Origin: Chloroflexota bacterium
GTDB lineage: Bacteria > Chloroflexota > Dehalococcoidia > UBA2979
Direction: 5' to 3'
NCBI GenBank assembly: GCA_027593235.1
Contig: JAQCIU010000005.1
Location: forward strand, 70,129-134,128
Length of the DNA: 64,000 nt
Shown one piece after another: positions 47,076-60,580 of this stretch. The stretch's first letter is position 1; each line of letters starts with the position of its first letter. A program made the translations under genes and the position numbers. A model generated the notes under the pieces. The model searched no databases. It saw nothing but the letters and a program-made list of their open reading frames with translations, and was not told the DNA's origin.

Positions 47076-49541
47076 GTGACCACCCCCGCTCGCTCGTTCG
47101 CCGTTGCGCTCCTGCTGCTCGCCGCGGCATTCCTCGTCGCCCCGACGTTCGCTCCACCCGCTGAGGCCCAATCAAGCTTCGAGCAGATCCTCGGGTACGA
47201 CGTCACCTGGACGATCCTCGAGAACAGCGACGTCCTCGTCAGCGAGGTGATCGAGTACGACTTCGGCTCGGCCTCACGTCACGGGATCTTCCGCGACATC
47301 CCGATCCGGTTCGATGTCGGAGACACAGAGCGGGTGCTCCGCATTCACGATCTGGTTGTGACTGCTTCGCCGGGAACGCCCGATGCGATCGACACGAGCA
47401 CCGACGAGAGCTTCTTCCATATCCGCATCGGCGACCCAGAGACCACGGTCTCCGGCGTCCACACCTACCGAATCGACTACCGCATCGAAGGCAGCATGAA
47501 CGCCTTCGACGATCACGACGAGCTGTATCTGAACGCGATCGGGCCCGGCTGGACCATCCCGATCAGCAACATGACCGTCACCGCCACGGCCCCGGACGCA
47601 TTTAGCGAGGTCACCTGCTTCGCCGGGTACGTGGAGGCGGACCGTCCCTGCGACGGCGCCACGTTCGAGGGCAACACTGCTCGTTTCACGCAGCAGAGCA
47701 TCGGCGCCGACGAGGCGGTCACTCCGGTCCTGGCGTTGCCGAAGGGCGTCGTCACCGTCAGCGAGCCGATCATCGAGCCGGCCCCCTCCTTCGCCTCGAT
47801 CCTCGACGCGCAATCCAACATCGAGCGGATCCGCCAGTACGACGTGACGTGGACGATCCGCGACGACGGGGATGTGCTGGTCAGCGAGCTGATCGAGTAC
47901 GACTTCGCCGACAATCCACGCCGCGGCATCTTCCGCGACATCCCCGTCCGCTTTCACTACGACGACACCAACGACCGCCTGCTGCGAATCAAGAATGTGG
48001 CCGTCTCCGCCTCGCCCGGCGCACCGGACGATGTGAAGCTCAGCACCGAGGGCACCGCGTTCCGTATCCGCATTGGCGATCCGGACATCACGATCACCGG
48101 CGTCCACACCTACCGCATCGATTACCGCATCGAGGGCGGTATGAACGCCTTCGACGATCACAGCGAGCTGTTCCTCAACGCGGTCGGTCCCGGCTGGGAG
48201 GTGAAGATCAGCGACATCACCGTGACCGTGACTGCCCCGGCGGCGTTCACCGAGGTCACCTGCTACGCAGGCCCCGTCGGCTCCCGCAGCGCCTGCGACA
48301 GCGCGAGCAGCGAGGGCAGCACGGCGCGCTTCGCTCAACAGGAGCTGGGATACGGTCAGGCGATCACCCCAGTCGTGTCACTGCCGCTCGACGCCGTCGC
48401 GGTCCGCCCGCCAATCCTCGAAGCGCGCCGGACGTTCCAACGCGCATTCTCAATCACCCCGTTCACGATCGGCGCGATGGCGTTGGTCTTCCTCGGCGCT
48501 ATCGGCACCGTGATCCGCCTGATCTGGGTCCACGGTCGCGATCAGCGATTCGTCGGCTCGGTGGTCGATGTCGCCTTCGGATCGGACACCGGCGAGACGC
48601 AGCGCGTCCCGCTCTTCGAATCCGCTGCCGACTCCGCGATCGAGTTCGCCCCGCCTGAGGGCGCGCTTCCCGGGCAGATGGGCACGCTGGTCGACGAGGT
48701 CGCGAACCCGCTGGACGTCACCGCAACGATCATCGATCTGGCCGTGCGCCACTACCTCACCATCGAGGAGGTCGAAGGCAAGGGCTGGTTCGCGAAGGAC
48801 GACTGGCGGCTGAAGCGGCTCAAGGAAGCGGATCCCACGCTCCGCGAATACGAGCGCGAACTCCTCGACGGCCTCTTCGAGGACGGTGACGACGTGCTGC
48901 TCGCCGACCTCAAGAACAAGTTCGTGAAGCGCCTCAAGGCCGTGCAAGACGATCTCTACCGCGACGTCGTCGCGCAGGGCTGGTTCCTGCGCCGCCCGGA
49001 CCAGATCCGCAGCTCCTGGGTCGTCACGGGCATCGTCACGCTGATCGGAGGCGTCGTCCTCACGGTGCTGCTTGCGATGTTCACTACCTGGGCGCTGATC
49101 GGCATCCCCGTCGCACTCGCCGGCTTGCTCATGACGATCGGCTCGAACGCGATGCCGCGACGCTCGGCGAAGGGCACCGGCATGATGCGCCGCGTCCTCG
49201 GCTTCCAGCGGGCGATCGCGACCGCCGAGCGCGACACCGCCCGCTGGGCGGAAGAGGCCGGCGTCTTCTCCAAGTACCTGCCCTACGCGGTCGTCTTCGG
49301 CCTCACCGATCGCTGGGCGAAGGCGTTCGAGGGCCTCGATGCAGAAATCACCGGCGTCGGTTCGTGGTACGTCTCTGACCGCCCGTTCACCACACTCGCG
49401 TTCGCCTCGATGGTCGGCGACTTCTCGAAGAGCACCGCCGGCACGATCGTCTCCACGCCATCCTCCTCCGGCTCCAGCGGATTCGGCGGCGGCGGCTTCT
49501 CCGGAGGCGGCATGGGCGGCGGCGGCGGCGGCTCCTGGTAG
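47076..49541 (+). CDS. DUF2207 family membrane protein with a duplicated extracellular domain
   Basis: GIFRDIP occurs twice; LPYAVVFG; GGGGGGSW C-terminus. Confidence 0.88.
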   Translation: MTTPARSFAVALLLLAAAFLVAPTFAPPAEAQSSFEQILGYDVTWTILENSDVLVSEVIEYDFGSASRHGIFRDIPIRFDVGDTERVLRIHDLVVTASPGTPDAIDTSTDESFFHIRIGDPETTVSGVHTYRIDYRIEGSMNAFDDHDELYLNAIGPGWTIPISNMTVTATAPDAFSEVTCFAGYVEADRPCDGATFEGNTARFTQQSIGADEAVTPVLALPKGVVTVSEPIIEPAPSFASILDAQSNIERIRQYDVTWTIRDDGDVLVSELIEYDFADNPRRGIFRDIPVRFHYDDTNDRLLRIKNVAVSASPGAPDDVKLSTEGTAFRIRIGDPDITITGVHTYRIDYRIEGGMNAFDDHSELFLNAVGPGWEVKISDITVTVTAPAAFTEVTCYAGPVGSRSACDSASSEGSTARFAQQELGYGQAITPVVSLPLDAVAVRPPILEARRTFQRAFSITPFTIGAMALVFLGAIGTVIRLIWVHGRDQRFVGSVVDVAFGSDTGETQRVPLFESAADSAIEFAPPEGALPGQMGTLVDEVANPLDVTATIIDLAVRHYLTIEEVEGKGWFAKDDWRLKRLKEADPTLREYERELLDGLFEDGDDVLLADLKNKFVKRLKAVQDDLYRDVVAQGWFLRRPDQIRSSWVVTGIVTLIGGVVLTVLLAMFTTWALIGIPVALAGLLMTIGSNAMPRRSAKGTGMMRRVLGFQRAIATAERDTARWAEEAGVFSKYLPYAVVFGLTDRWAKAFEGLDAEITGVGSWYVSDRPFTTLAFASMVGDFSKSTAGTIVSTPSSSGSSGFGGGGFSGGGMGGGGGGSW

Positions 49542-49613: not shown

Positions 49614-50405
49614 ATGGACCTCGGACTCACCGGAAAAGTCGCGATCGTGACCGGCGGCAGCGACGGTATCGGCAAAGCTGCCGCCCGCGCGCTCGCCCGC
49701 GAGGGCGCTCGCGTCGCGATCTGCGCCCGCCGCCCCGACGTCCTCGAGGCCGCAGCCGCCGAACTCCGCGCGGAGACCGGCGGCGAGGTCATCGGCATCG
49801 TCTGCGACATGACGAAACAGGCGGAAGTGAAGGCCCTCGTCGCCGATGTCGTCGGCCGCTGGAGCCAGCTCGACATCCTCGTCAACAACGCCGGCACCTC
49901 GTCCGCGATGCCGGTGGAGTCGCTGGACGAGGAGGCGCTGAGCTACGACCTGCAGCTCAAGGTCTACGGCGCGGTCTACGCCTCGCAAGCCGCGATCCCG
50001 CACATGAAGGCGCTCGGAAGCGGTCGCATCATCAACATCACCACGGGCGGCGGAAAGGCGCCGGGCGCCAGTTCGCTGCCCACCTCGCTCTCCCGCGCCG
50101 CCGGGATCGCGCTCACGAAGGCGATGTCGCGTGACCTCGCGCCCGCCAACATCCTCGTGAATACCGTTTGTATCGGCCTGATCAAGGCCGGACAGCACGA
50201 GCGCCGCGTCGAGGCGATGCAGGACACCAACCCCGCGCTCACCCTCGATGACCACTACGAGAACATGAGCGGCCGCGTCCCGTTGGGCCGCGTCGGTGAA
50301 GCGCAGGAAGCCGGCGACGTGATCTGCTTCCTCGCCTCGGAGCGCGCGAGCTACGTCACCGGTGCCTCGATCAACGTCGATGGCGGTGTCGCGCCAGTCG
50401 TGTAA
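49614..50405 (+). CDS. Short-chain dehydrogenase/reductase
   Basis: TGGSDGIG, NNAG and VDGG. Confidence 0.9.
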   Translation: MDLGLTGKVAIVTGGSDGIGKAAARALAREGARVAICARRPDVLEAAAAELRAETGGEVIGIVCDMTKQAEVKALVADVVGRWSQLDILVNNAGTSSAMPVESLDEEALSYDLQLKVYGAVYASQAAIPHMKALGSGRIINITTGGGKAPGASSLPTSLSRAAGIALTKAMSRDLAPANILVNTVCIGLIKAGQHERRVEAMQDTNPALTLDDHYENMSGRVPLGRVGEAQEAGDVICFLASERASYVTGASINVDGGVAPVV

Positions 50406-50420
50406 CGACTTACTGCCACC

Positions 50421-50686
50421 AGTTGGTGCGAGTACCGAGGCTCCCACCAGCTGTGGGGGCGGCGACGCTTCCCGGGTGAGTTGTGTAACGACACGCTCGT
50501 ATTAGGGGTTCGTCGCTTCGCCAGAATCTTCCAAATCTGGGCACCGTAGAACGCGATTTGACTAATACCCGCAGATTCTCAGAAACCGAATCTCCCAATT
50601 CTGGCGATAGTGCACCAACTCACTCGTTGATGCTGTCGAGCTCCACCGCGATGTTCCTTCAGGCCCCCACACGAGCCTCCGAGGAG
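50421..50686 (+). ncRNA. Candidate structured RNA (5' leader or sRNA) upstream of the tetrapyrrole operon
   Basis: Five nested complementary segments of 6-11 bp, one crossing 7-bp pair and one alternative 9-bp pair; ends beside the RBS GAGGAG. Confidence 0.5.
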
Positions 50687-50692
50687 TCGTCG

Positions 50693-51703
50693 ATGCGCTA
50701 TCGCACCATCGCCGGAACAGACCTCTCCGTCTCCGAAATCGGATTCGGCGTCTGGACCCTGACCGCAGGCTGGTGGGGCGATCATTCGGACGAGGACGCC
50801 GCCTCGATGCTCCGCGACGCGACCGACCTCGGCATCAACTTCATCGACACCGCCGACACCTACGGCCAGGGACGCGGCGAACGGATGATCGCCACCGCGT
50901 TTCCCGGCGCCGAACGCGACAAGATCGTTTTGAGCACCAAGTTTGGCTACGACTGGGAATCGGTGGACCGCTCGGCGAAGAATCACCAGCCGGCGCAGCA
51001 CTGCTTCGAACCAGACTTCGTCGAGCGCGCGTTGCACAACTCGCTCGACCGCATGGGCACCGATCACATCGACCTCTGGCAACTCCACAACGTGCGCATG
51101 GAACACCTCCAGCGCGATGACCTCTGGACGCTGATCGACCGCGTCCGCACCGAGGGCAAAGTCCGCTCGGTCGGCGTCGCGCTCGGGCCGGCTATCGGGT
51201 GGCTCGACGAGGGCGTCTACGCGATGGAGCACCTGCCGATCCAGGTGGTCCACATGATCTACAACGCCCTCGAGCTGGATCCCGGCCGCACCCTCATCGA
51301 GACCGCGCGCCGCACCAACAAGTCACTGCTCACCCGCGTCCCGCACTCCTCGGGGATGCTCGAGGGCAAGTACACGCTGGACACCACCTTCGCCGCGGAC
51401 GATCACCGCAAGCACCGTCCGCGCGCCTGGCTCGTCAACGGCCTCAAGAAGATCGAGCAACTCGACTTCCTCACGGCCTCAGGTGAACGGACGCTCGGCC
51501 AGGCGGCGCTCCGCTACGTGCTGCGTGAGCCCGAGGTCGTCAGCGCGCTACCCAACATCTACGACCGCGATCAACTCGCGGAGTTCGCAGCCGCCTCGGA
51601 TGTCCCCGACGTCAGCGACGACGAGGCGGCCCGCATCGAGACGCTCTTCACCGCGAACTACGGGCTCGCCGTCGAGCGCGAGGCAGGACTGGCAACCCGA
51701 TGA
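50693..51703 (+). CDS. Aldo/keto reductase (first gene of the tetrapyrrole operon)
   Basis: IGFG, DTADTYG, STKFG and QLHN. RBS GAGGAG at 50681-50686; ATGA overlap with the next gene. Confidence 0.9.
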   Translation: MRYRTIAGTDLSVSEIGFGVWTLTAGWWGDHSDEDAASMLRDATDLGINFIDTADTYGQGRGERMIATAFPGAERDKIVLSTKFGYDWESVDRSAKNHQPAQHCFEPDFVERALHNSLDRMGTDHIDLWQLHNVRMEHLQRDDLWTLIDRVRTEGKVRSVGVALGPAIGWLDEGVYAMEHLPIQVVHMIYNALELDPGRTLIETARRTNKSLLTRVPHSSGMLEGKYTLDTTFAADDHRKHRPRAWLVNGLKKIEQLDFLTASGERTLGQAALRYVLREPEVVSALPNIYDRDQLAEFAAASDVPDVSDDEAARIETLFTANYGLAVEREAGLATR

Positions 51704-52560
51704 CCCAACGCCCGCCCGCCTCCGTCAACGGATCCAGCGGCCACGCCGGCGGCCCACCCGCGTGGGTGACGGCCGCCGCCAACGCCCCGCGCCGGCCACA
51801 GTCGCCGCACGGCAAACAGTTCGTGAAGTTCAGCTTCTTCAAGATCCGCGACGACGTGCGCGCCCTCAAGCGAAAGAAGCGCCAGGCCCTCGGCGACCAG
51901 CTCTCGCAGCTCCTCGTCAGCTCCAACGAGCGGATGCTGACCCGCGTCTACTCCACGCTCGGCTCGCGCGGCGACACCGACTTCCTGATCTGGCAGGTCG
52001 CGGACAACCTCGATGTCATCATGGACTGGCAGGCCGAGCTGCTCGACACGAAGCTCGGCTGGGCGCTGGAGCGCCCGCATTCGTTCCTCTCGATGACGAT
52101 GCGGTCGCAGTACCAGAACCAGTACACGCCCGGTGCGGAGCACCGCGATCGTTTCCGCGCGGACGGCGGCACCAACGACTGGCTGTTCGTCTACCCGATG
52201 GCGAAGACGAAGGACTGGTACCAGTCCTCGGCGACGCGGCGGAACAAGGCGATGGCCGAGCACATCGCGGTCGGCCACGCCTACCCCGAGATCAAGATCA
52301 ACACGACCTACTCCTACGGCCTCGATGACCAGGAGTTTGTCGTCGCCTTCGAGGGTGACTCGCCCGGGCAGTTCCTCGCCCTGGTCAAGGACCTGCGGGC
52401 CTCTGACTCCACCTCCTTCACCGAGTTCGATACGCCGATGTTCACCTGCAGGCGGATGGAGATCGGCGAGCTGATCGACCAGGTCGGCCTCGGTGCCGGC
52501 GTCCGCGCGCGCGAACAGGCGCCCGCTGTCGCCGCGCCCACCAGGGCGGCGCACGCATGA
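51700..52560 (+). CDS. chdC: Coproheme decarboxylase-like protein (ChdC/HemQ, chlorite dismutase superfamily)
   Basis: ChdC-type YPMAK motif, WY, proximal His in EHIAVG, and YSYGLDDQEFVVAFE. Confidence 0.78.
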   Translation: MTQRPPASVNGSSGHAGGPPAWVTAAANAPRRPQSPHGKQFVKFSFFKIRDDVRALKRKKRQALGDQLSQLLVSSNERMLTRVYSTLGSRGDTDFLIWQVADNLDVIMDWQAELLDTKLGWALERPHSFLSMTMRSQYQNQYTPGAEHRDRFRADGGTNDWLFVYPMAKTKDWYQSSATRRNKAMAEHIAVGHAYPEIKINTTYSYGLDDQEFVVAFEGDSPGQFLALVKDLRASDSTSFTEFDTPMFTCRRMEIGELIDQVGLGAGVRAREQAPAVAAPTRAAHA

Positions 52561-53711
52561 CCACCACCGCCACCGTCCCCGTCACTATCGACGACCCGAT
52601 CAACGTCGCGATCCTCCAGGTCTCCGAGGACCGCCTGCAGGGCTTCCAGCGCGATCCGTTCGCTGCGGTAGCGAGCCAGTCCGGTGTCGCGCTGCCGGTG
52701 GTCCTCGAACGTGTCCGCGCGATGCTCGAGGCGGGCACGATCCGTCGGGTCCGCCAGACAATGATCACGACCAGCCTCGCGACCGGTTCGCTCGTCGCCT
52801 GGCAGGTTCCGGAGGATCGGCTCACCGAGGCGTTCGACTACCTCTTCCAACAGGATCCGTTCTCCGGGCACGTCGTGATCCGCACGACCGACTCCGCGAC
52901 CGCTGGCTCCCGCTACCGTCTCTGGACCACGCTCAAGGTTCCGCCCCAGTTCTCCATCGACGCGCACGCGCACTACCTCGGCGATCAGATCGGCGCGGAG
53001 ACGTTCCGCCTGATGCCGGCCAAGAAGCTCTTCGCCCTCGGTGTCGGACACACCCGCCGCCGCACGCTCGAGCCCGGGGCCCGCTCCGCGGACCTCGGAC
53101 GCGTGATCGACACGGACGTCATCCCGCTCAGCGACCGCGAATTGGTCGTGATGGAGGCGCTCAAGCGCGAGTTCGCGCCGGCCGAACTGACCGAGGATCT
53201 CTGGGCGCCCCGCGCCGCCGAGGCCGGCGTGCCCCTCGAGGAGTTCACCGCCACCGCTGACGCCCTGCAGGCGAAGGGCGTCGTCGGGCGCTTCTCGACC
53301 TTCCTCGAACACGTGAAGCCGGTCGCTGGTGGCCAGCGCGTCACGCGCTACAACGCGCTCTTCCACTGGGCCGTCCCGGCGGGCCGGGAACTCGAGGCCG
53401 GACGCGAGGTCGGACGCCACGAGATCATGACGCACGCCTACTGGCGCGAGGGCGGCCCCGAGTTCCGAAACGTGAACGTCATGGGCGTCGCGCATGGTAC
53501 CGACAAGGATCTGGTCCTTGCCCACAAGGCCGCCATCGACACGCACCTCGAAGAGGCTGGGATCTCGATCGGTTACACGAACGTCTTCTGGGGCGGTCGC
53601 AGCGAGATCAAACCATCCGAGATTTCACCGCTCGCGTACATGCGCTGGTGTGATTCCGTCGGCATCGACCCCGACTCGATGCGCGTTGATGCAGGGAAAG
53701 CGGGCGCCTGA
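52557..53711 (+). CDS. Fused AhbA/AhbB (NirDL-like) siroheme decarboxylase, Lrp/AsnC fold
   Basis: Two Lrp-like repeats. The second has THAYWR (HxYxR); the first has degenerate GHVVIR. Operon context agrees. Confidence 0.68.
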   Translation: MTTTATVPVTIDDPINVAILQVSEDRLQGFQRDPFAAVASQSGVALPVVLERVRAMLEAGTIRRVRQTMITTSLATGSLVAWQVPEDRLTEAFDYLFQQDPFSGHVVIRTTDSATAGSRYRLWTTLKVPPQFSIDAHAHYLGDQIGAETFRLMPAKKLFALGVGHTRRRTLEPGARSADLGRVIDTDVIPLSDRELVVMEALKREFAPAELTEDLWAPRAAEAGVPLEEFTATADALQAKGVVGRFSTFLEHVKPVAGGQRVTRYNALFHWAVPAGRELEAGREVGRHEIMTHAYWREGGPEFRNVNVMGVAHGTDKDLVLAHKAAIDTHLEEAGISIGYTNVFWGGRSEIKPSEISPLAYMRWCDSVGIDPDSMRVDAGKAGA

Positions 53712-54484
53712 TGGGTTACTACGCCGTGTTCTGGGAGATGGGCGATCGGCCCGTGCTCCTCGTCGGTGGCGGTCACGTCGCTGACGAAAAAGTGCACAAG
53801 CTCGTCGACGCCGGCGCGCGCGTCACCATCGTCGCGCCCGCGCTGATCCCCGCGGTGAAGCAATACGTCGACGACGGTCGCGCCGCCTGGATCGAGCGTC
53901 CCTTCGCCCCCGGCGACACCGACGGCTATGAGGTCGTCATGGTCGCCACCGACGACGGCGCCGTGAACAAGCAAGTCGCCGACGAGGCCCGCGCGCGCGG
54001 CATCTGGGTGAACGCCGCGGACGACGTCGCCAACTGCGACTTCATCCTCCCCTCCCTCGCGAAGCGTGGAAAAATCGCCATCGCAACCTCCACCGGTGGC
54101 AGCAGCCCCGCGCTCGCGCGCTGGCTCCGCGAGCGGATGGAAGAGTTCCTCTCCGAGGACGTCGAACTGCTTGGCGATCTGCTCGCCGAAGTGCGCGTGC
54201 TCGCCCGCCAGCGCGACCGTGAATGCGCCGGCGGTTGCGAGCTGGTCAACACGCCACCCCCGCTCCTCTGCAAGCAGTGTCCCAACCGCATCGCCGCCGA
54301 CACCTGGCAGACAGCGATCGACGAACCGCTCCAGAACCTGCTCCGCGCCGGCGACTACGAGGGCGCGAAGCGACGGCTGATCCACGCGCTCGGCATCGAC
54401 CAGCCGTTGAAGTCACGTGCCACCCCGGCATCGGCAGTCGGGTCGCCTCAGGAGACCGCGGTGGCCGCGGTCGCTGGAGACTAG
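53711..54484 (+). CDS. Precorrin-2 dehydrogenase/ferrochelatase (SirC/Met8/CysG-N type)
   Basis: LVGGGHVA, VNAADD, CDFILP and STGGSSPALA. Confidence 0.88.
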   Translation: MGYYAVFWEMGDRPVLLVGGGHVADEKVHKLVDAGARVTIVAPALIPAVKQYVDDGRAAWIERPFAPGDTDGYEVVMVATDDGAVNKQVADEARARGIWVNAADDVANCDFILPSLAKRGKIAIATSTGGSSPALARWLRERMEEFLSEDVELLGDLLAEVRVLARQRDRECAGGCELVNTPPPLLCKQCPNRIAADTWQTAIDEPLQNLLRAGDYEGAKRRLIHALGIDQPLKSRATPASAVGSPQETAVAAVAGD

Positions 54485-54486
54485 CG

Positions 54487-55782
54487 ATGCTGACCCTCGC
54501 CACGATGAGTCACCACACCGCTCCGATCGCGGTCCGCGAACGGATCGCGATCCCCGCCGATGCGTTGGACGCCGCCACTGCGCGCGCGCAGGTCCAGCTC
54601 GGGCCCTCCGCCATCCTTTCGACCTGCAACCGCTTCGAGTTGTACGTCTCTGGTGACCACGACCCCGCCCGCCTGCTCGCATTCATCGCCGCCGAAACCG
54701 GCGCCGACGAGACCGCCGTCCAGCGGCACTTCGCGGTGCACCGCGACACCGAGGCCGTCCGGCACCTCTACCGTGTCGCTTCCGGCATCGAATCGCTGGT
54801 CCTCGGTGAGTTCGAAATCATGGGCCAGCTCCGCGGCGCCTTCTCCGTTGCCGCCGGCGCGGGGATGGAGGACGCGATCCTCGTCCACGTCATGCACGGC
54901 GCGATCCGCGCCGGTCGCCGCGCGCGCCACGAAACCGCGATCGGCCACCACGCCATGTCCGTCTCCTCGATCGCCGCGCGCCAGGCACGTGACCTGCACC
55001 CGCGCATCGCCGATGCACGCGTGTTGGTGATCGGCGCCGGCGAAGCCGGCCGCCTTACCGCCGAGGCGCTCGTCGATCAGGGTGTCACCCACGTCACCGT
55101 CACCAACCGCACCTTCGCCCGCGCCGAATCGCTCGCCGCGGAACTTGGCGGGCGCGCCGTCCCCTTCGAGGATCTGCCCGCCGCGATCGCCACCGACGAC
55201 ATCGTCGTTGCCGCCTCCGGTGCCCCCGGCACGCTTGTCGATCTCGAGCTGATGCGCGCCGCGGTCGAACGCCGCGAGGGTGCTCCATTGATCGCGATCG
55301 ACATCGGCATGCCACGCGATTTCGATCCCGCGATCGCGAGCTTGCCCGGCGTCTCCTACTACGACATGGAGGGGCTGCAGGAGATCGCCGCCGCCAATGG
55401 CCGCGCCCGCGCCGAGGAACTCCCGGCCGTCGAGGCCGTGCTCGCCGAGGAGATCGCTGACTTCGTCGCCTGGTGCGAACGCCTCCGGACAAAGCCAACC
55501 ATCGCCTCGCTCACCAGCCACGCCGAGGAGATTCGCATCGCCGCCGTCGAGAAATCGCTGCGCCGACTCCCCGCCGACGATGATCTCCGCCGCGAGGTCG
55601 ACGCCCTCACGCGCACCATCGTGAAACGCCTGCTGCACGACCCGATCACCACGCTCCGCAATCGCGGCGACCGCGAGCAGCACTACATCGAGGCGGTGCG
55701 CACCCTCTTCCAGCTCGATGGCGAGGCCGCGGTTCCGTCCTTCAGCGAAGACGCCCCGCACGACAGCGACGCCGCCGGCTGA
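54487..55782 (+). CDS. hemA: Glutamyl-tRNA reductase
   Basis: HHTAPIAVRE, STCNRFE, GEFEIMGQ, IGAGE, NRT and DIGMPRD. Confidence 0.95.
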   Translation: MLTLATMSHHTAPIAVRERIAIPADALDAATARAQVQLGPSAILSTCNRFELYVSGDHDPARLLAFIAAETGADETAVQRHFAVHRDTEAVRHLYRVASGIESLVLGEFEIMGQLRGAFSVAAGAGMEDAILVHVMHGAIRAGRRARHETAIGHHAMSVSSIAARQARDLHPRIADARVLVIGAGEAGRLTAEALVDQGVTHVTVTNRTFARAESLAAELGGRAVPFEDLPAAIATDDIVVAASGAPGTLVDLELMRAAVERREGAPLIAIDIGMPRDFDPAIASLPGVSYYDMEGLQEIAAANGRARAEELPAVEAVLAEEIADFVAWCERLRTKPTIASLTSHAEEIRIAAVEKSLRRLPADDDLRREVDALTRTIVKRLLHDPITTLRNRGDREQHYIEAVRTLFQLDGEAAVPSFSEDAPHDSDAAG

Positions 55783-56690
55783 TGCCCGTCCTCCGCATCG
55801 CGACCCGCGGCTCGCGACTTGCCCTCGTCCAGGCCCACTTCGTGGCCGACGCCCTGCGCGCCGCGCATGACCGCGTCACGATCGAGGTGATCGAAATCAG
55901 CACCGAGGGCGATCGCGATCGCGCCACTCCGCTCAGCGTGCTCGGCGGACGTGGCGTTTTCGTAAAGGCCGTCGAGGAGGCGCTGCTCGACGGCCGCGCC
56001 GACGTCGCCGTCCATTCTCTGAAAGACGTTCCCACCGAGGACGTCGCGGGGCTCACGATCGCGGCGGTCCCCCTTCGCGCTGACCCGCGCGATGTGCTGG
56101 TCGCCTCGGAAGGTCGTCCGCTCGCCGCGCTCCCCGCTGGCGCGCGCGTCGGCACCAGCTCGCGCCGCCGTGCCGCGCTGGTCCGCGCCATCCGACCCGA
56201 CCTCGAACTCGCCGAAATCCGTGGCAACGTCGACACCCGACTCGCGCACGTCGCCAGCGGCGCCTACGACGGCGCGATCCTCGCCGCCGCTGGCCTCGAT
56301 CGCCTCGGCCGGCTCGGCGAAGCGACCCAGCTCTTCGACGCGCGCGAGTTCCTGCCCGCTCCGGGACAGGGCGCACTCGGCATCCAGTGCCGCAGCGACG
56401 ACGCCACCACGCTCGCGGCGCTCGCCGCCCTCGATCACCCCGACACGCACGCCGCCGCCGCCGCCGAACGCGGCTTCCTGCGGGCGCTCGGCGCCGGCTG
56501 CACGCTCCCCGTCGGCGCCTACGCGACCGTCGAGGACGGCCTGCTCTCGCTGCGCGGCATGCTCGCCGACGATGACGGCGGCCTGCCCCACTTCGGAGAC
56601 GCCACCGGCCGCGCCACGGACGGCCCCGCGATTGGTCGCGCCCTCGCCGAGCAACTCCACGCCGGGGTCGCAACGGCGGATACCCCGTGA
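55782..56690 (+). CDS. hemC: Hydroxymethylbilane synthase
   Basis: ATRGSRLA, VHSLKD, GTSSRRR, RGNVDTR, PAPGQG and GCTLP. Confidence 0.96.
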   Translation: MPVLRIATRGSRLALVQAHFVADALRAAHDRVTIEVIEISTEGDRDRATPLSVLGGRGVFVKAVEEALLDGRADVAVHSLKDVPTEDVAGLTIAAVPLRADPRDVLVASEGRPLAALPAGARVGTSSRRRAALVRAIRPDLELAEIRGNVDTRLAHVASGAYDGAILAAAGLDRLGRLGEATQLFDAREFLPAPGQGALGIQCRSDDATTLAALAALDHPDTHAAAAAERGFLRALGAGCTLPVGAYATVEDGLLSLRGMLADDDGGLPHFGDATGRATDGPAIGRALAEQLHAGVATADTP

Positions 56691-58276
56691 GCGACACCCT
56701 GCTCGGACACGTCTGGCTCGTCGGCGCCGGCCCCGGCGATCCCGGCTGGATCACCCACGCCGGCCTCGAGGCCCTGCGCAATGCCGAGGTGGTTGTCTAC
56801 GACCGCCTCGCGCCCGCTGAGCTGCTGAGCGACGCGCCCGCTGGCGCGCTCCTCGTCAACGCCGGCAAGGAGCCAACCCGCCACGCGATGACCCAGGACG
56901 AAATCAACGCCTGCCTCGTCGAGCATGGTCGCGCAGGCAAGCGCGTCGTCCGGCTCAAGGGTGGCGATCCGTACGTTTTCGGTCGTGGCGGCGAGGAAGC
57001 AGTCGCGCTCCGTCAGGCCGGCGTCCCATGCACCGTCATCCCCGGCATCACCTCGGCGATCGCCGGACTCGCCGCTGCTGGCATCCCGATCACCCACCGC
57101 GGCGTTGCCGTCTCGTTCGCAGTCGTCACCGGCCACGAGGATCCGACGAAGCCCGCAGAACAGGCCAACTGGCACCGTCTCGCCACCGCCGTCGACACCC
57201 TCGTCGTGCTGATGGGCGTCGGTCGCCTCGACGCGATCACGCAGGCGCTGATCGCTGGTGGTCGCGATCCAGCGTCCCCGGCCGCGTTGATCCAGGAGGC
57301 CGCGACCACCCGCCAGCGCGTCGTCACCGCCCCACTCTCCGCCATCGCTGCCGCCGCACGTGAGCATGACGTCCAGTCGCCCGCGCTCTTCGTCGTCGGC
57401 GACGTCGTGGCGCTCCGCGACCAGCTCGACCCGGCTGGCCTCGGTCCACTCGCCGGCAAACGCGTGCTCGTCACGCGTACCCGTGCACAGGCCTCCACCC
57501 TCGTCGAGCAGCTCAAACTCCAGGGCGCGCGGCCGCTCGTGCTGCCCGCCATCGAGGTCCAGCACCGCGCCGAGCCCGCGGAAGTCGCCCGCGCCGCCCT
57601 TTCGCTCCGCGCGGGTGATGTCGAATGGGTCGCCTTCACCTCCGCGATCGCTGTCCGTGTCTTCCTCGATCTGCTCGCCGACTCCCAGACCGACGCGCGC
57701 GCCTTCGCCGGCGCGAAGATCTGCGCGCTCGGCGACGCCACCGCCGCCGCCCTCGCCGAGCGCGGCCTGATCGCAGACCTCGTACCGACCGAGGCGACCG
57801 GCGCAGCCGCCGCCTCCGCGATGATCGATGCCTTCGAGGCAACCGGACTGACCGCGGCGCGGGTGCTGCTGCCGCGTGCCGAAGGCGCGGACCCCGCGCT
57901 CCCCACGGCCCTCACCGCCGCCGGCGCGACCGTCACCGAGGTCACCCTCTATCTCTCCGGGCCGCCGTCCTCCGTGCCGGACACGCTCCTCAACGAAGTC
58001 CGCGCCGGCGTTGATGTCGCCACCTTTACGTCGTCCTCGACCGTGAGGAACCTCGCGACACTGCTCGGCGATCTCTCCTCGCTCCAGGGCGCAACAATCG
58101 CCTGCATCGGGCCGACCACCGCCGCGACGGCCCGCGAACTCGGCCTCGAACCGGACGTCATCGCCACCGACCACTCGGTCCCTGGACTGATCGCGGCGCT
58201 ACGCGATCATCTCTGGCTGCAACAATCGATCCACGCACCGACCGCAGGGACCGCAAGAACGGAGCAAGCCTCGTGA
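56687..58276 (+). CDS. cobA: Uroporphyrinogen-III methyltransferase / uroporphyrinogen-III synthase fusion (CobA-HemD)
   Basis: GAGPGD and RLKGGDP in the N-half; LVTR, FTSSS and CIGPTT in the C-half. Confidence 0.93.
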
Positions 58277-59283
58277 TTGCCGATCTGGAACGTCGCACCG
58301 CCACCGGGGGCTTCACCCGCACTCGTCGAACACGGCGCACCGCCGCCCTGCGCGGGCTCGTCCGCGAGACCCGCCTCGATCCGTCATCGTTCGTCTACCC
58401 GCTGTTCATCACCCACGGCAGCGGCGTGCGCGAACCGATCAGCTCCATGCCCGGCCAGTTCCGACTCTCCGTCGACCAACTGGCGCCCGAAGCCCGCGAA
58501 CTCCGCTCGGTCGGCGTCCGCGCCGTGCTGCTCTTCGGCCTGCCCGCCTTCAAGGACCCCGTCGGCTCCGAGGGCTACGCCGCTGACGGGATCGTCCAGC
58601 AGGCGATCCGTGCGCTCAAGAACGCCGACCCGGATCTCGCGGTGATCGCGGACGTCTGCCTCTGCGAGTACACCGATCACGGCCACTGTGGCGTACTCAG
58701 CGCGACCGGCGACGTGCTCAACGACGAAAGCCTGCCGCTCCTGTCCCAGATGGCCGTCACCTGCGCCGAAGCCGGCGCGGACATCGTCGCGCCGTCCGAC
58801 ATGATGGACGGCCGGGTCGGCGCCATCCGCGAGGCGCTCGATGACAGCGGTCTCCCGGAGACCGCAATCATGGCCTACAGCGCCAAGTACTCCTCGGCGT
58901 TCTACGGTCCGTTCCGTGAGGCGGCTGACTCCGCTCCGCAGTTCGGCGACCGTCGCGGCTACCAGATGGATCCCGCCAACGCGCGTGAGGCACTCCGCGA
59001 GGTCGACGCCGACGAAGCGGAGCACGCCGACATCACGATGGTGAAACCAGCGCTCGCCTACCTCGACGTCATCCGCCAGGTGCGCGACCGCACGGACCTG
59101 CCACTCGCCGCCTACAACGTCTCGGGCGAGTACTCGATGCTCAAGGCCGCGATCGCGAACGGCTGGCTGGACGAGGAGCGCGTCATCCTCGAGACCCTCA
59201 CGTCGATCCGCCGCGCCGGCGCCGACATCCTCATCACCTACCACGCGAAAGAAGCGGCGAAGTGGCTGGCGAACAATGGCTAA
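58273..59283 (+). CDS. hemB: Porphobilinogen synthase (Zn-type)
   Basis: [29 protein letters not shown] and MVKP. Confidence 0.97.
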
Positions 59284-60580
59284 TCTGAACCACGACCGTT
59301 CTCGCGCGCTGATGGAGCGCGGCCGCACCCTCCTCCCCGGCGGTGTCGACTCACCGGTCCGCGCCTACAAGGCGGTCGGCGGCGATCCCATCGTCCTCGC
59401 CAGCGGTCAGGGCGCCCTCGTCACCGACGTCGATGGCAACGAATACATCGACTACGTCTGCTCCTACGGGCCGCTCATCCTCGGTCACGCCCACCCAGCG
59501 GTCGTCCAGGCAATCCGCGACGCGGCGCCGCTCGGCACCTCCTTCGGCGCACCGACCGAGGCCGAACTCGATCTCGCCGATCGCGTGATCGACGCCGTCC
59601 CCGCCGTCGACATGGTCCGCTTCGTGAACTCCGGCACCGAAGCCGCGATGAGCGCCCTCCGCCTTGCGCGCGGCGCCACCGGTCGTGACCTGATCCTGAA
59701 GTTCGACGGCTGCTACCACGGCCACGCCGACGGTCTGCTCGCGGCCGCGGGATCCGGCGTCGCCACCCTCGGCCTCCCCGACTCGCCCGGCGTCCCCGCC
59801 GCGATGGCCGCGCAGACGCTGGTCGCTCCGTACAACGATCTCGCCGCTGCGCGCACCGCCCTCGAGGCCCACCGTGACCAGGTCGCCGCGATCGTCGTCG
59901 AGCCGATCGCCGGCAACATGGGCGTCGTCCCGCCGGCCCCCGGTTACCTCGAGGGCCTGCGCTCCCTCTGCGACGAGTTCGGCGCGCTCCTCGTCTTCGA
60001 CGAAGTGATCACCGGCTTCCGCGCCTCGAAGGGTGGCGCGCAGCTCAAGTACGGCGTCACGCCTGACATCACTGTGCTCGGCAAAATCATCGGCGGCGGG
60101 CTGCCCGTCGGCGCCTACGGCGGCTCACGCGCGCTGATGGAACAGATGGCCCCGGCCGGCTCGATCTACCAGGCGGGCACACTTTCCGGGAACCCGCTGG
60201 CGATGGCCGCCGGTCGCGCCACCCTCGACACGCTCTTCGCCATCGAGGGCGCGTACGAGCGACTGGACATGCTCGGCAAACGACTCGCCACCGGCCTCGC
60301 GGGCGCCGCCTCCGCGGCCGGCGTGCCACTCACCGTCGTCCAGGCCGGCTCCACGCTGACCGCGTTCTTCCGCGATTGCGCACCCACGAACTACGCCGAG
60401 GCCGCCACCTCGGACACCGCGGCCTTCGGCCGCTTCCACCGCGCCATGTTGGACCGTGGCGTGCACCTCGCCCCGTCGCAGTACGAGGGCTGGTTCCTCT
60501 CGCTCGCCCATGACGAACCGGTGATCGATCGCACGATCGAAGCCGCCACCGCAGCATTCGAGGTCGTCGCCAGCGCCTGA
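59276..60580 (+). CDS. hemL: Glutamate-1-semialdehyde 2,1-aminomutase
   Basis: [29 protein letters not shown] and [10 protein letters not shown]. Confidence 0.97.

Follow-up and report, generated by a model that had tools for sequence, protein, structure and literature searches.

Accounts of heme synthesis usually give three routes in which every enzyme is known. The window analysed here, a stretch of 64,000 nucleotides from a Chloroflexota bacterium of the class Dehalococcoidia (assembly GCA_027593235.1, contig JAQCIU010000005.1), holds a nine-gene operon at positions 50693–60580 that raises the question of how heme can be made from siroheme when one step of the route has no assigned enzyme. 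The operon encodes a fused protein of the siroheme decarboxylase type AhbA/AhbB, a homologue of coproheme decarboxylase (ChdC) and an aldo-keto reductase (AKR), and it contains neither AhbC nor AhbD, the two radical S-adenosylmethionine (SAM) enzymes usual for the siroheme route. We propose, with moderate confidence, that it specifies the full route from glutamyl-tRNA to heme b via siroheme, with an oxygen-tolerant ending in which the AKR is directly involved together with ChdC. Read from its genes, the operon appears to be a new variant of the siroheme-dependent pathway with a candidate role for the AKR.

Organization of the operon and its late enzymes

The nine genes lie on the + strand in the order AKR-ChdC-AhbAB-SirC-HemA-HemC-CobA/HemD-HemB-HemL, each overlapping or abutting the next. 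Family scores and the junctions read from the sequence confirmed all nine where the initial annotation had placed them:

50406–50692, + strand: upstream intergenic region and likely promoter, 287 bp between the stop codon of a short-chain dehydrogenase (SDR) gene and the ATG of the AKR gene, with lower G+C and GAGGAG before the ATG
50693–51703, + strand: aldo-keto reductase of an AKR11-like clade linked to ChdC/AhbAB (PF00248, 169.6 bits)
51700–52560, + strand: coproheme decarboxylase ChdC (HemQ) homologue (PF06778, 165 bits)
52557–53711, + strand: divergent fused AhbA/AhbB (NirDL-like) putative siroheme decarboxylase, named AhbAB* here (PF17805, 58.7 bits in two stretches)
53711–54484, + strand: SirC, precorrin-2 dehydrogenase of the CysG N-terminal type (TIGR01470, 143.1 bits, above 62.3; PF13241, PF14824)
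54487–55782, + strand: glutamyl-tRNA reductase HemA, with its ATG at 54487 (TIGR01035, 358 bits, above 209.55)
55782–56690, + strand: hydroxymethylbilane synthase HemC (TIGR00212, 326.6 bits, above 164)
56687–58276, + strand: fused uroporphyrinogen-III C-methyltransferase (CobA/SirA) and uroporphyrinogen-III synthase (HemD) (TIGR01469, 292.1 bits, above 185; PF02602, 185.2 bits)
58273–59283, + strand: porphobilinogen synthase HemB (NF006762, 495.2 bits, above 297)
59276–60580, + strand: glutamate-1-semialdehyde 2,1-aminomutase HemL (TIGR00713, 591.9 bits, above 527.3)

All six early enzymes of the operon pass their NCBIfam cut-offs. The AKR gene is coupled to chdC, as first noted, through an ATGA overlap, and the ChdC/AhbAB junction is a second ATGA overlap; AhbAB and SirC share TGATG, SirC and HemA are spaced by 2 bp, and the four later junctions overlap by 1, 4, 4 and 8 bp. 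3′ of HemL, the + strand open reading frames show the codon-position G+C of non-coding sequence and overlap a minus-strand gene, so the operon ends with HemL. Both the AKR/ChdC and the ChdC/AhbAB junction are spanned by contigs of two independent studies (0 differences in run X3, ~3% in run X4), and the gene arrangement is therefore not an assembly chimera. Scans of the operon for Rfam families, promoters and terminators gave nothing of note, with no Rfam family and no consensus sigma-70 site in the upstream region.

On family membership, HemA, HemL, HemB, HemC and HemD would supply uroporphyrinogen III, which CobA and SirC would convert to siroheme; SirC probably doubles as the iron chelatase. 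AhbAB* would then decarboxylate siroheme to 12,18-didecarboxysiroheme, as its homology, conserved histidines and position in the operon suggest, and the homology and conserved residues of ChdC point to the conversion of coproheme to heme b. Between these two reactions, the two acetate side chains of didecarboxysiroheme would be lost through an activity other than AhbC to give coproheme. We propose the AKR as a dedicated third component of this aerobic branch, with a direct part in acetate loss together with ChdC, the chemistry of which we infer; viewed overall, two acetic acid units can leave the two reduced rings without a net redox change.

The initial annotation had called the third gene a fused AhbAB, and the fusion and the conserved histidines bear this out, but the protein belongs to a divergent subtype that falls under the NCBIfam equivalog cut-offs for both AhbA (52.1 against 140 bits) and AhbB (70.5 against 125 bits). 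Its tandem modules, each expected to pair a helix-turn-helix domain (PF22451) with an AsnC-like ligand-binding domain (PF17805), appear as two stretches matching PF17805, above the cut-off of 27 bits, and PF22451 is matched at 22.8 bits, under its cut-off of 27. The protein aligns over its full length with NirDL (4ch7, E 1e-11) and also with AhbA and AhbB, although it carries a conserved C-terminal extension and several insertions relative to NirDL. In each half the histidine of the H-x-Y-x-R motif aligns with its counterpart in NirDL and AhbA/AhbB; the NirDL structure paper reportedly assigns an essential role to these histidines. Residues H105, R109, H293, Y295 and R297 are invariant across 28 AhbAB* and four canonical fused AhbAB sequences. 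Members of the family share 56–83% identity across Chloroflexota, Verrucomicrobiota, Armatimonadota, Planctomycetota and Eremiobacterota (80 loci), and the family comprises at least 8000 sequence clusters (8000 of 8000 scored at E ≤ 1e-10), annotated merely as Lrp/AsnC regulators or hypothetical proteins.

The counterpart operon of a relative from the same family, the single-contig genome G119, reads AKR, AhbAB, ChdC, a MerR-like gene, sirC-hemA-hemC-cobA/hemD-hemB, a HAD gene and hemL. Its canonical fused AhbAB passes both the AhbA and the AhbB equivalog cut-offs, with 241 and 233 bits, and AhbAB* therefore stands in the window for a bona fide siroheme decarboxylase.

The window ChdC exceeds by far the cut-off of 25 bits for the chlorite-dismutase-like fold family PF06778 and stays under the HemQ equivalog cut-offs (HemQ_actino, 116.2 against 235 bits; PRK12276, 67.8 against 253 bits). 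Its best solved relatives are the actinobacterial ChdCs 9mhq (E 6e-27) and 6xub. Residues Y165, K169 and H188 are invariant in 49 sequences, and H188 and Y165, which we take to be the proximal histidine and the catalytic tyrosine, align with the matching residues of solved ChdCs.

The AKR retains the intact D/Y/K/H tetrad attributed to it from the outset: D52, Y57, K83 and H132 do not vary among 21 orthologues (42–100% identity) and align with the matching residues of AKR11 structures. The predicted fold is an AKR11-like (β/α)8 barrel (pLDDT 86, TM-score up to 0.79), with AKR11B (1pz1) and AKR11A (1pyf) as the best solved relatives. No named AKR family is reached by equivalog cut-off, the best being YdjG at 98.8 bits against 550. 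A complex prediction for ChdC and the AKR returned a score of 0.00, a ‘no answer’ that counts neither for nor against an interaction.

Absence of AhbC and distribution of the AKR clade

The window belongs to a metagenome-assembled genome (MAG) that spans 3.39 Mb over 78 contigs, with a completeness of 89.66% and a contamination of 0.59%. It encodes a heme-copper oxidase subunit I (COX1, 534.6 bits), so the organism needs heme. That ahbC, ahbD, uroD, cgoX and cpfC are not in the operon was part of the initial annotation, and profile searches of the whole genome extended this to the rest of the MAG. The best match to AhbC (TIGR04546) scored 40 bits against a cut-off of 650, and the best proto_IX_ox match, for CgoX, 55 bits against 98. 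The sole URO-D match, on contig C53, reached 38 bits against the hemE cut-off of 303 and was rejected as HemE, being MtaA/CmuA-like. Ferrochelatase, a CbiX-type chelatase and cd1 nitrite reductase gave no match in this genome. The genome has just eight radical-SAM regions, none AhbC- or AhbD-like. Among the two radical-SAM genes scanned against NCBIfam, which are HemW and a SPASM protein on contig C61, the best AhbD score was 41.4 bits against 500; the other six regions were named from translations only (MoaA, MiaB, RimO, RlmN, LipA and a B12-binding type).

Two surveys extended these searches to relatives. In the first, the genomes of 50 of the 80 AhbAB* loci were searched whole. ChdC was present in 49 of the 50, and HemE over its cut-off and HemH occurred in one genome each, in both cases G010 (locus L025, in a record titled Acidimicrobiaceae), which may hold two routes or be a mixed bin. 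A full-length AhbC-like gene (340–570 bits) was found in 11 genomes; the other 39 had none.

The second survey drew 101 genomes evenly from the class, 72 of them of high quality, and the resulting tables were compared by hand. An AhbA/B domain was detected in 59 genomes (and as a fragment in G100) and ferrochelatase in 13, and the two never occurred together. Of the 39 genomes with ChdC, 28 also had AhbAB, 9 had ferrochelatase and 2 had neither. Each of the sample's 12 AhbAB* genomes carries ChdC. An AhbC-like gene of at least 380 bits (380–636) was present in 36 genomes, and it adjoins AhbAB in 22 of these, often with an AhbD-like gene between or alongside. Such a gene was found in 28 of the 32 AhbAB genomes that lack ChdC (29 counting a contig-end fragment in G127), and in just 5 of the 28 with both AhbAB and ChdC. 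Six of the remaining 23 are single-contig genomes: searches of G119, G070, G077 and G113 at E ≤ 1e-15 returned no AhbC-like gene beyond one 57-bit match, and searches of G106 and G133 at E ≤ 1e-40 returned none. The initial annotation had set its reading against a genuine ahbC elsewhere in the genome; none was found in the MAG, in 39 of the 50 AhbAB* genomes or in 23 of the 28 AhbAB and ChdC genomes of the class. Because these 23 include six single-contig genomes, the AhbC gap is real and clade-wide and does not come from incompleteness of the MAG.

We then compared these patterns with the distribution of the AKR clade, defined in the class sample by E ≤ 1e-45 and at least 41% identity. The clade was found in 29 of the 101 genomes. 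Where AhbAB and ChdC occur together, 26 of 28 genomes had it, and the two exceptions are 69% and 77% complete; it was also present in both ChdC genomes having neither AhbAB nor ferrochelatase, which makes 28 of the 30 ChdC genomes without ferrochelatase. It was absent from all nine genomes with ChdC and HemH, those of the coproporphyrin route. One of the 32 AhbAB genomes without ChdC carried it (63% complete), and none of the 30 remaining genomes did. Among the 28 carriers other than the MAG itself, 20 have the AKR gene no more than 300 bp from ChdC and/or AhbAB. At least five gene orders were seen (AKR-ChdC-AhbAB*, AKR-AhbAB-ChdC, AhbAB*-AKR-ChdC, AKR-ChdC and AKR-AhbAB), and the carriers spread over at least 15 families. 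The same pattern was found within families: in family f35, G084 has the AKR and the coproporphyrin-route genomes G116 and G140 do not, and in family f1, G142 is without AhbAB, ChdC and AKR, whereas G000, G088 and G119 have all three. These results show that the linkage of the AKR to ChdC/AhbAB, which the initial annotation had proposed to profile, is conserved, strong and specific. Neither an ahbC elsewhere in the genome nor a lack of conserved linkage, the combination that the annotation had named as refuting its idea, was thus observed.

One genome, G149, holds both modules on separate contigs, each with its own decarboxylase. In L178 (5924–9355), a canonical AhbAB is accompanied by a TIGR04053/AhbD-like radical-SAM gene and an AhbC-like gene on one contig, and L179 (447–10014) reads hemA-AhbAB*-AKR-ChdC-cobA/hemD-sirC, two CbiX-like genes and hemL-hemC. 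Because the AKR clade tracks genomes with ChdC and without ferrochelatase, and because it adjoins ChdC/AhbAB, the AKR and ChdC beside AhbAB look like an aerobic counterpart of AhbC and AhbD in anaerobic relatives.

Candidate activities for acetate removal

A more specific proposal casts the AKR as a novel, NAD(P)-dependent and oxygen-tolerant enzyme which, alone or with ChdC, would convert 12,18-didecarboxysiroheme to coproheme and so replace AhbC; we put it forward only tentatively and consider it rather doubtful. Known AKRs transfer hydride to or from carbonyls, and we are aware of none that cleaves a C-C bond on a tetrapyrrole. Several further points weigh against a direct role. The AKR occurs together with an AhbC-like gene in 4 of the 5 genomes of the class sample and 8 of the 11 of the 50-genome set that have both ChdC and AhbC; it is not anticorrelated with AhbC, so there is no simple either/or replacement. 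The AhbC gap and the AKR linkage thus support the overall reading of the initial annotation, but this co-occurrence does not, and nor does the 50-genome set, in which the AKR clade accompanies 26 of the 39 AhbC-less genomes and leaves 13 AhbC-less AhbAB* and ChdC genomes, mostly Verrucomicrobiota, without an AKR of at least 41% identity. The genomes without either AhbC or the AKR must solve the acetate-removal step in another way. An AKR that serves ChdC only in the absence of CgoX, its usual peroxide source, would match the profile just as well. Finally, related genomes are not independent, so that the counts overstate the statistical weight, and the genome itself is a MAG at 89.66% completeness.

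The 13 AhbC-less genomes that have ChdC and no such AKR fit a reading in which ChdC alone performs both steps, its peroxide-generated tyrosyl radical also abstracting a neighbouring ring hydrogen of didecarboxysiroheme so that acetate leaves, and the AKR being an accessory that, for example, reduces a reactive two-carbon by-product. ChdC accompanies AhbAB* in 49 of 50 genomes and in 12 of 12 of the class sample, and the propionates that ChdC attacks, on rings A and B, share these two rings with the acetates that have to be removed, as established pathway chemistry holds (PMC10114771). A specialised bifunctional clade of ChdC for AhbC-less genomes was sought and rejected. In a ChdC tree of 77 rows, built without 12 of the 49 genomes that carry ChdC in the first survey, AhbC-plus and AhbC-less rows are interleaved (12 changes for 14 rows, against a shuffled mean of 13.2), and coproporphyrin-route ChdCs nest among siroheme-route AhbC-less ones (G116 and G140 with G084; also G123 and G144); the ChdCs of Verrucomicrobiota form a deeply divergent clade. 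ChdC acting alone would also leave unexplained why the AKR tracks AhbAB with ChdC so exactly and is absent from 9/9 ChdC and HemH genomes, and we regard it as unlikely. That same tracking, with 0/9 ChdC and HemH carriers and 1/32 among AhbAB genomes without ChdC, would equally suit an AKR that helps ChdC indirectly, by providing oxidant or reducing equivalents where CgoX is missing, while an unlinked enzyme removes the acetates. The coexistence of the AKR with AhbC in genomes that also have ChdC (4/5 and 8/11) fits such a helper, and ChdC does repeatedly recruit redox helpers, as seen from the three to four antibiotic biosynthesis monooxygenase (ABM) genes beside it in 10 loci and from haloarchaeal PitA, described as a ChdC-ABM fusion (PMC5746218). 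However, when the genes adjoining AhbAB* (80 loci) and, in other phyla, ChdC (20 loci) were clustered without bias, no additional gene proved widely conserved. AKRs are, to our knowledge, not known to make peroxide directly, and we judge the indirect role to be quite unlikely.

The two other explanations concern the identity of the pathway. AhbAB* could act on uroporphyrinogen III as a replacement for UroD, with CgoX and ferrochelatase also replaced, so that the operon would be a coproporphyrin route in disguise. HemE is absent in 49 of the 50 AhbAB* genomes and AhbAB* scores under both equivalog cut-offs, as this would predict, but two more missing enzymes would be required instead of one. 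Moreover, AhbAB* overlaps sirC in the window and adjoins it in L012, L013, L062 and L075, its slot in G119 is held by an AhbAB that passes both cut-offs, and in G037, G046 and G027 it is the sole AhbA/B-type protein beside an AhbC-like gene; we consider this explanation very improbable. Alternatively, a real AhbC or AhbD could have been missed through the incompleteness of the MAG or through divergence, with an ordinary AHB (siroheme-dependent) route and ChdC as an extra. The C61 SPASM gene, whose best and weak (~40 bits) matches are NirJ1, AhbD and AhbC, was weighed as a hidden AhbC and rejected, as its neighbourhood is not heme-related. It is flanked at C61:51901–54961 by a GT2 glycosyltransferase, a small membrane protein and a DUF2064-like gene, read from translations, in what looks like a conserved cluster, and its orthologues occur in 4 of the 50 related genomes, two of which also carry a true AhbC. 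Together with the single-contig relatives that lack AhbC, this makes a missed enzyme hardly credible. A direct part of the AKR, together with ChdC, in the step from didecarboxysiroheme to coproheme remains our preferred reading.

Other neighbours were considered as the missing enzyme. The clustering yielded lineage-specific companions, among them ABM genes, HemW, a WD40 protein and QueG. In the ten Dehalococcoidia loci with ABM genes (L015, L017, L020, L022, L024, L031, L039, L041, L063 and L065), these lie between ChdC and AhbAB* as three to four tandem, abutting genes of ~100 aa each with the antibiotic biosynthesis monooxygenase fold (for example L020:8811–10001); the genome of the window has no clear ABM homologue, and these genes were rejected. 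DUF1802, another lineage-specific companion, encoded in G070 between hemB and the AKR gene (L134:7587–8165), likewise has no homologue there and was rejected. HemW stays a candidate; its equivalog cut-off is passed in our genome and in Verrucomicrobiota, but HemW is so widespread in bacteria that finding it would say little. In 11 Verrucomicrobiota loci, the gene directly upstream of AhbAB* encodes a heme chaperone of the HemW radical-SAM type (TIGR00539, 251 bits, above 205) (L069, L070, L072, L073, L074, L078, L080, L081, L082, L088 and L090; for example L070:47–1279). Five of these loci come from searched genomes (G038, G039, G040, G043 and G045), all five of which are without an AhbC-like gene and without an AKR of at least 41% identity.

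The MerR/excisionase-type helix-turn-helix gene of G119 (L133:10902–11690), also a lineage-specific companion and located between ChdC and sirC, has homologues near heme genes in L066, L075, L131 and L132, and its product may regulate the operon. In the genome of the window a MerR-type homologue is found on contig C46 (202–1526) beside a HAD hydrolase; the HAD gene of G119 sits between hemB and hemL. Upstream of the operon in the window are a DUF2207 membrane protein (47076–49541) and the SDR (49614–50405), which occupies the same position in L012, L013 and L062 at 85–86% identity.

Significance and comparison with known systems

AhbAB and ChdC occur without HemE, without ferrochelatase and mostly without AhbC in a large group of bacteria, for the most part aerobic, from at least five phyla. 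Their oxidases require heme, but no enzyme is assigned to one step of its synthesis. Because the AhbAB* family is annotated merely as a regulator or a hypothetical protein, predicting heme auxotrophy from genomes would wrongly class such organisms as auxotrophs. Three concrete candidate genes emerge from the data: AhbAB*, AKR and ChdC. If the proposal is true, these would constitute a fourth, aerobic variant of heme synthesis in aerobic Chloroflexota and probably in Armatimonadota and Eremiobacterota, and Verrucomicrobiota and Planctomycetota without the AKR would have a further, different solution to acetate removal. An oxygen-tolerant route from siroheme to coproheme would also interest engineers of heme production. 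In the literature we found no AKR related to tetrapyrroles, no AhbC-less route with AhbAB and ChdC and no AKR linked to one; subscription papers may bear on this novelty.

One known scheme is the AHB pathway of Desulfovibrio and Methanosarcina, which runs through AhbA/B, AhbC and AhbD with coproheme as the penultimate compound (PMC10114771, PMC13564367). AhbC removes the acetate side chains by radical chemistry (PMC10114771), and the accessible text of reviews of 2022 and 2026 names AhbC alone for the conversion of didecarboxysiroheme to coproheme (PMC10114771, PMC13564367). As in that pathway, uroporphyrinogen III would here be methylated, oxidised and loaded with iron to give siroheme, from which an AhbA/B-type enzyme would remove two carboxyls. 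The operon differs in that both radical-SAM enzymes are missing from the genome and from most ChdC-bearing relatives, and in having ChdC and the AKR beside AhbAB.

The most similar case described is that of Haloferax volcanii, in which the siroheme route proceeds through NirDL/NirGH (AhbAB) and AhbC and then ends with PitA in air and with AhbD without air, the ChdC-type last step in air having been shown by deletion phenotypes, according to the accessible part of the report (PMC5746218). The archaeon retains AhbC (HVO_1121), and no AKR is mentioned for it in the accessible text of two papers (PMC5746218, PMC8305020). The operon thus shares with H. volcanii a siroheme route ending with a ChdC-type enzyme, and the ABM-fold genes beside ChdC in the ten Dehalococcoidia loci recall PitA, but the genome of the window lacks AhbC and has a linked AKR in its stead.

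With the coproporphyrin pathway of Firmicutes and Actinobacteria (HemE, CgoX, CpfC and ChdC), the operon has the last enzyme family in common, and the nearest solved ChdCs are actinobacterial; HemE, CgoX and ferrochelatase are, by contrast, absent here, as is the AKR clade from the genomes with ChdC and HemH. The fused decarboxylase resembles NirDL of Hydrogenobacter thermophilus, an enzyme of heme d1 synthesis, in its two-module fusion, with residues 31–320 aligned and both histidines kept. It differs in its identity of ~25%, its insertions and its C-terminal extension, and its host lacks the cd1 nitrite reductase. The AKR has the barrel fold and the D/Y/K/H tetrad of the AKR11 enzymes YhdN (1pz1) and IolS (1pyf) of B. 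subtilis and of AKRtyl and MtmW, which act on large natural products, whereas identities in the structural alignments are only 20–26% and it forms a clade of its own, marked out by linkage to ChdC/AhbAB.

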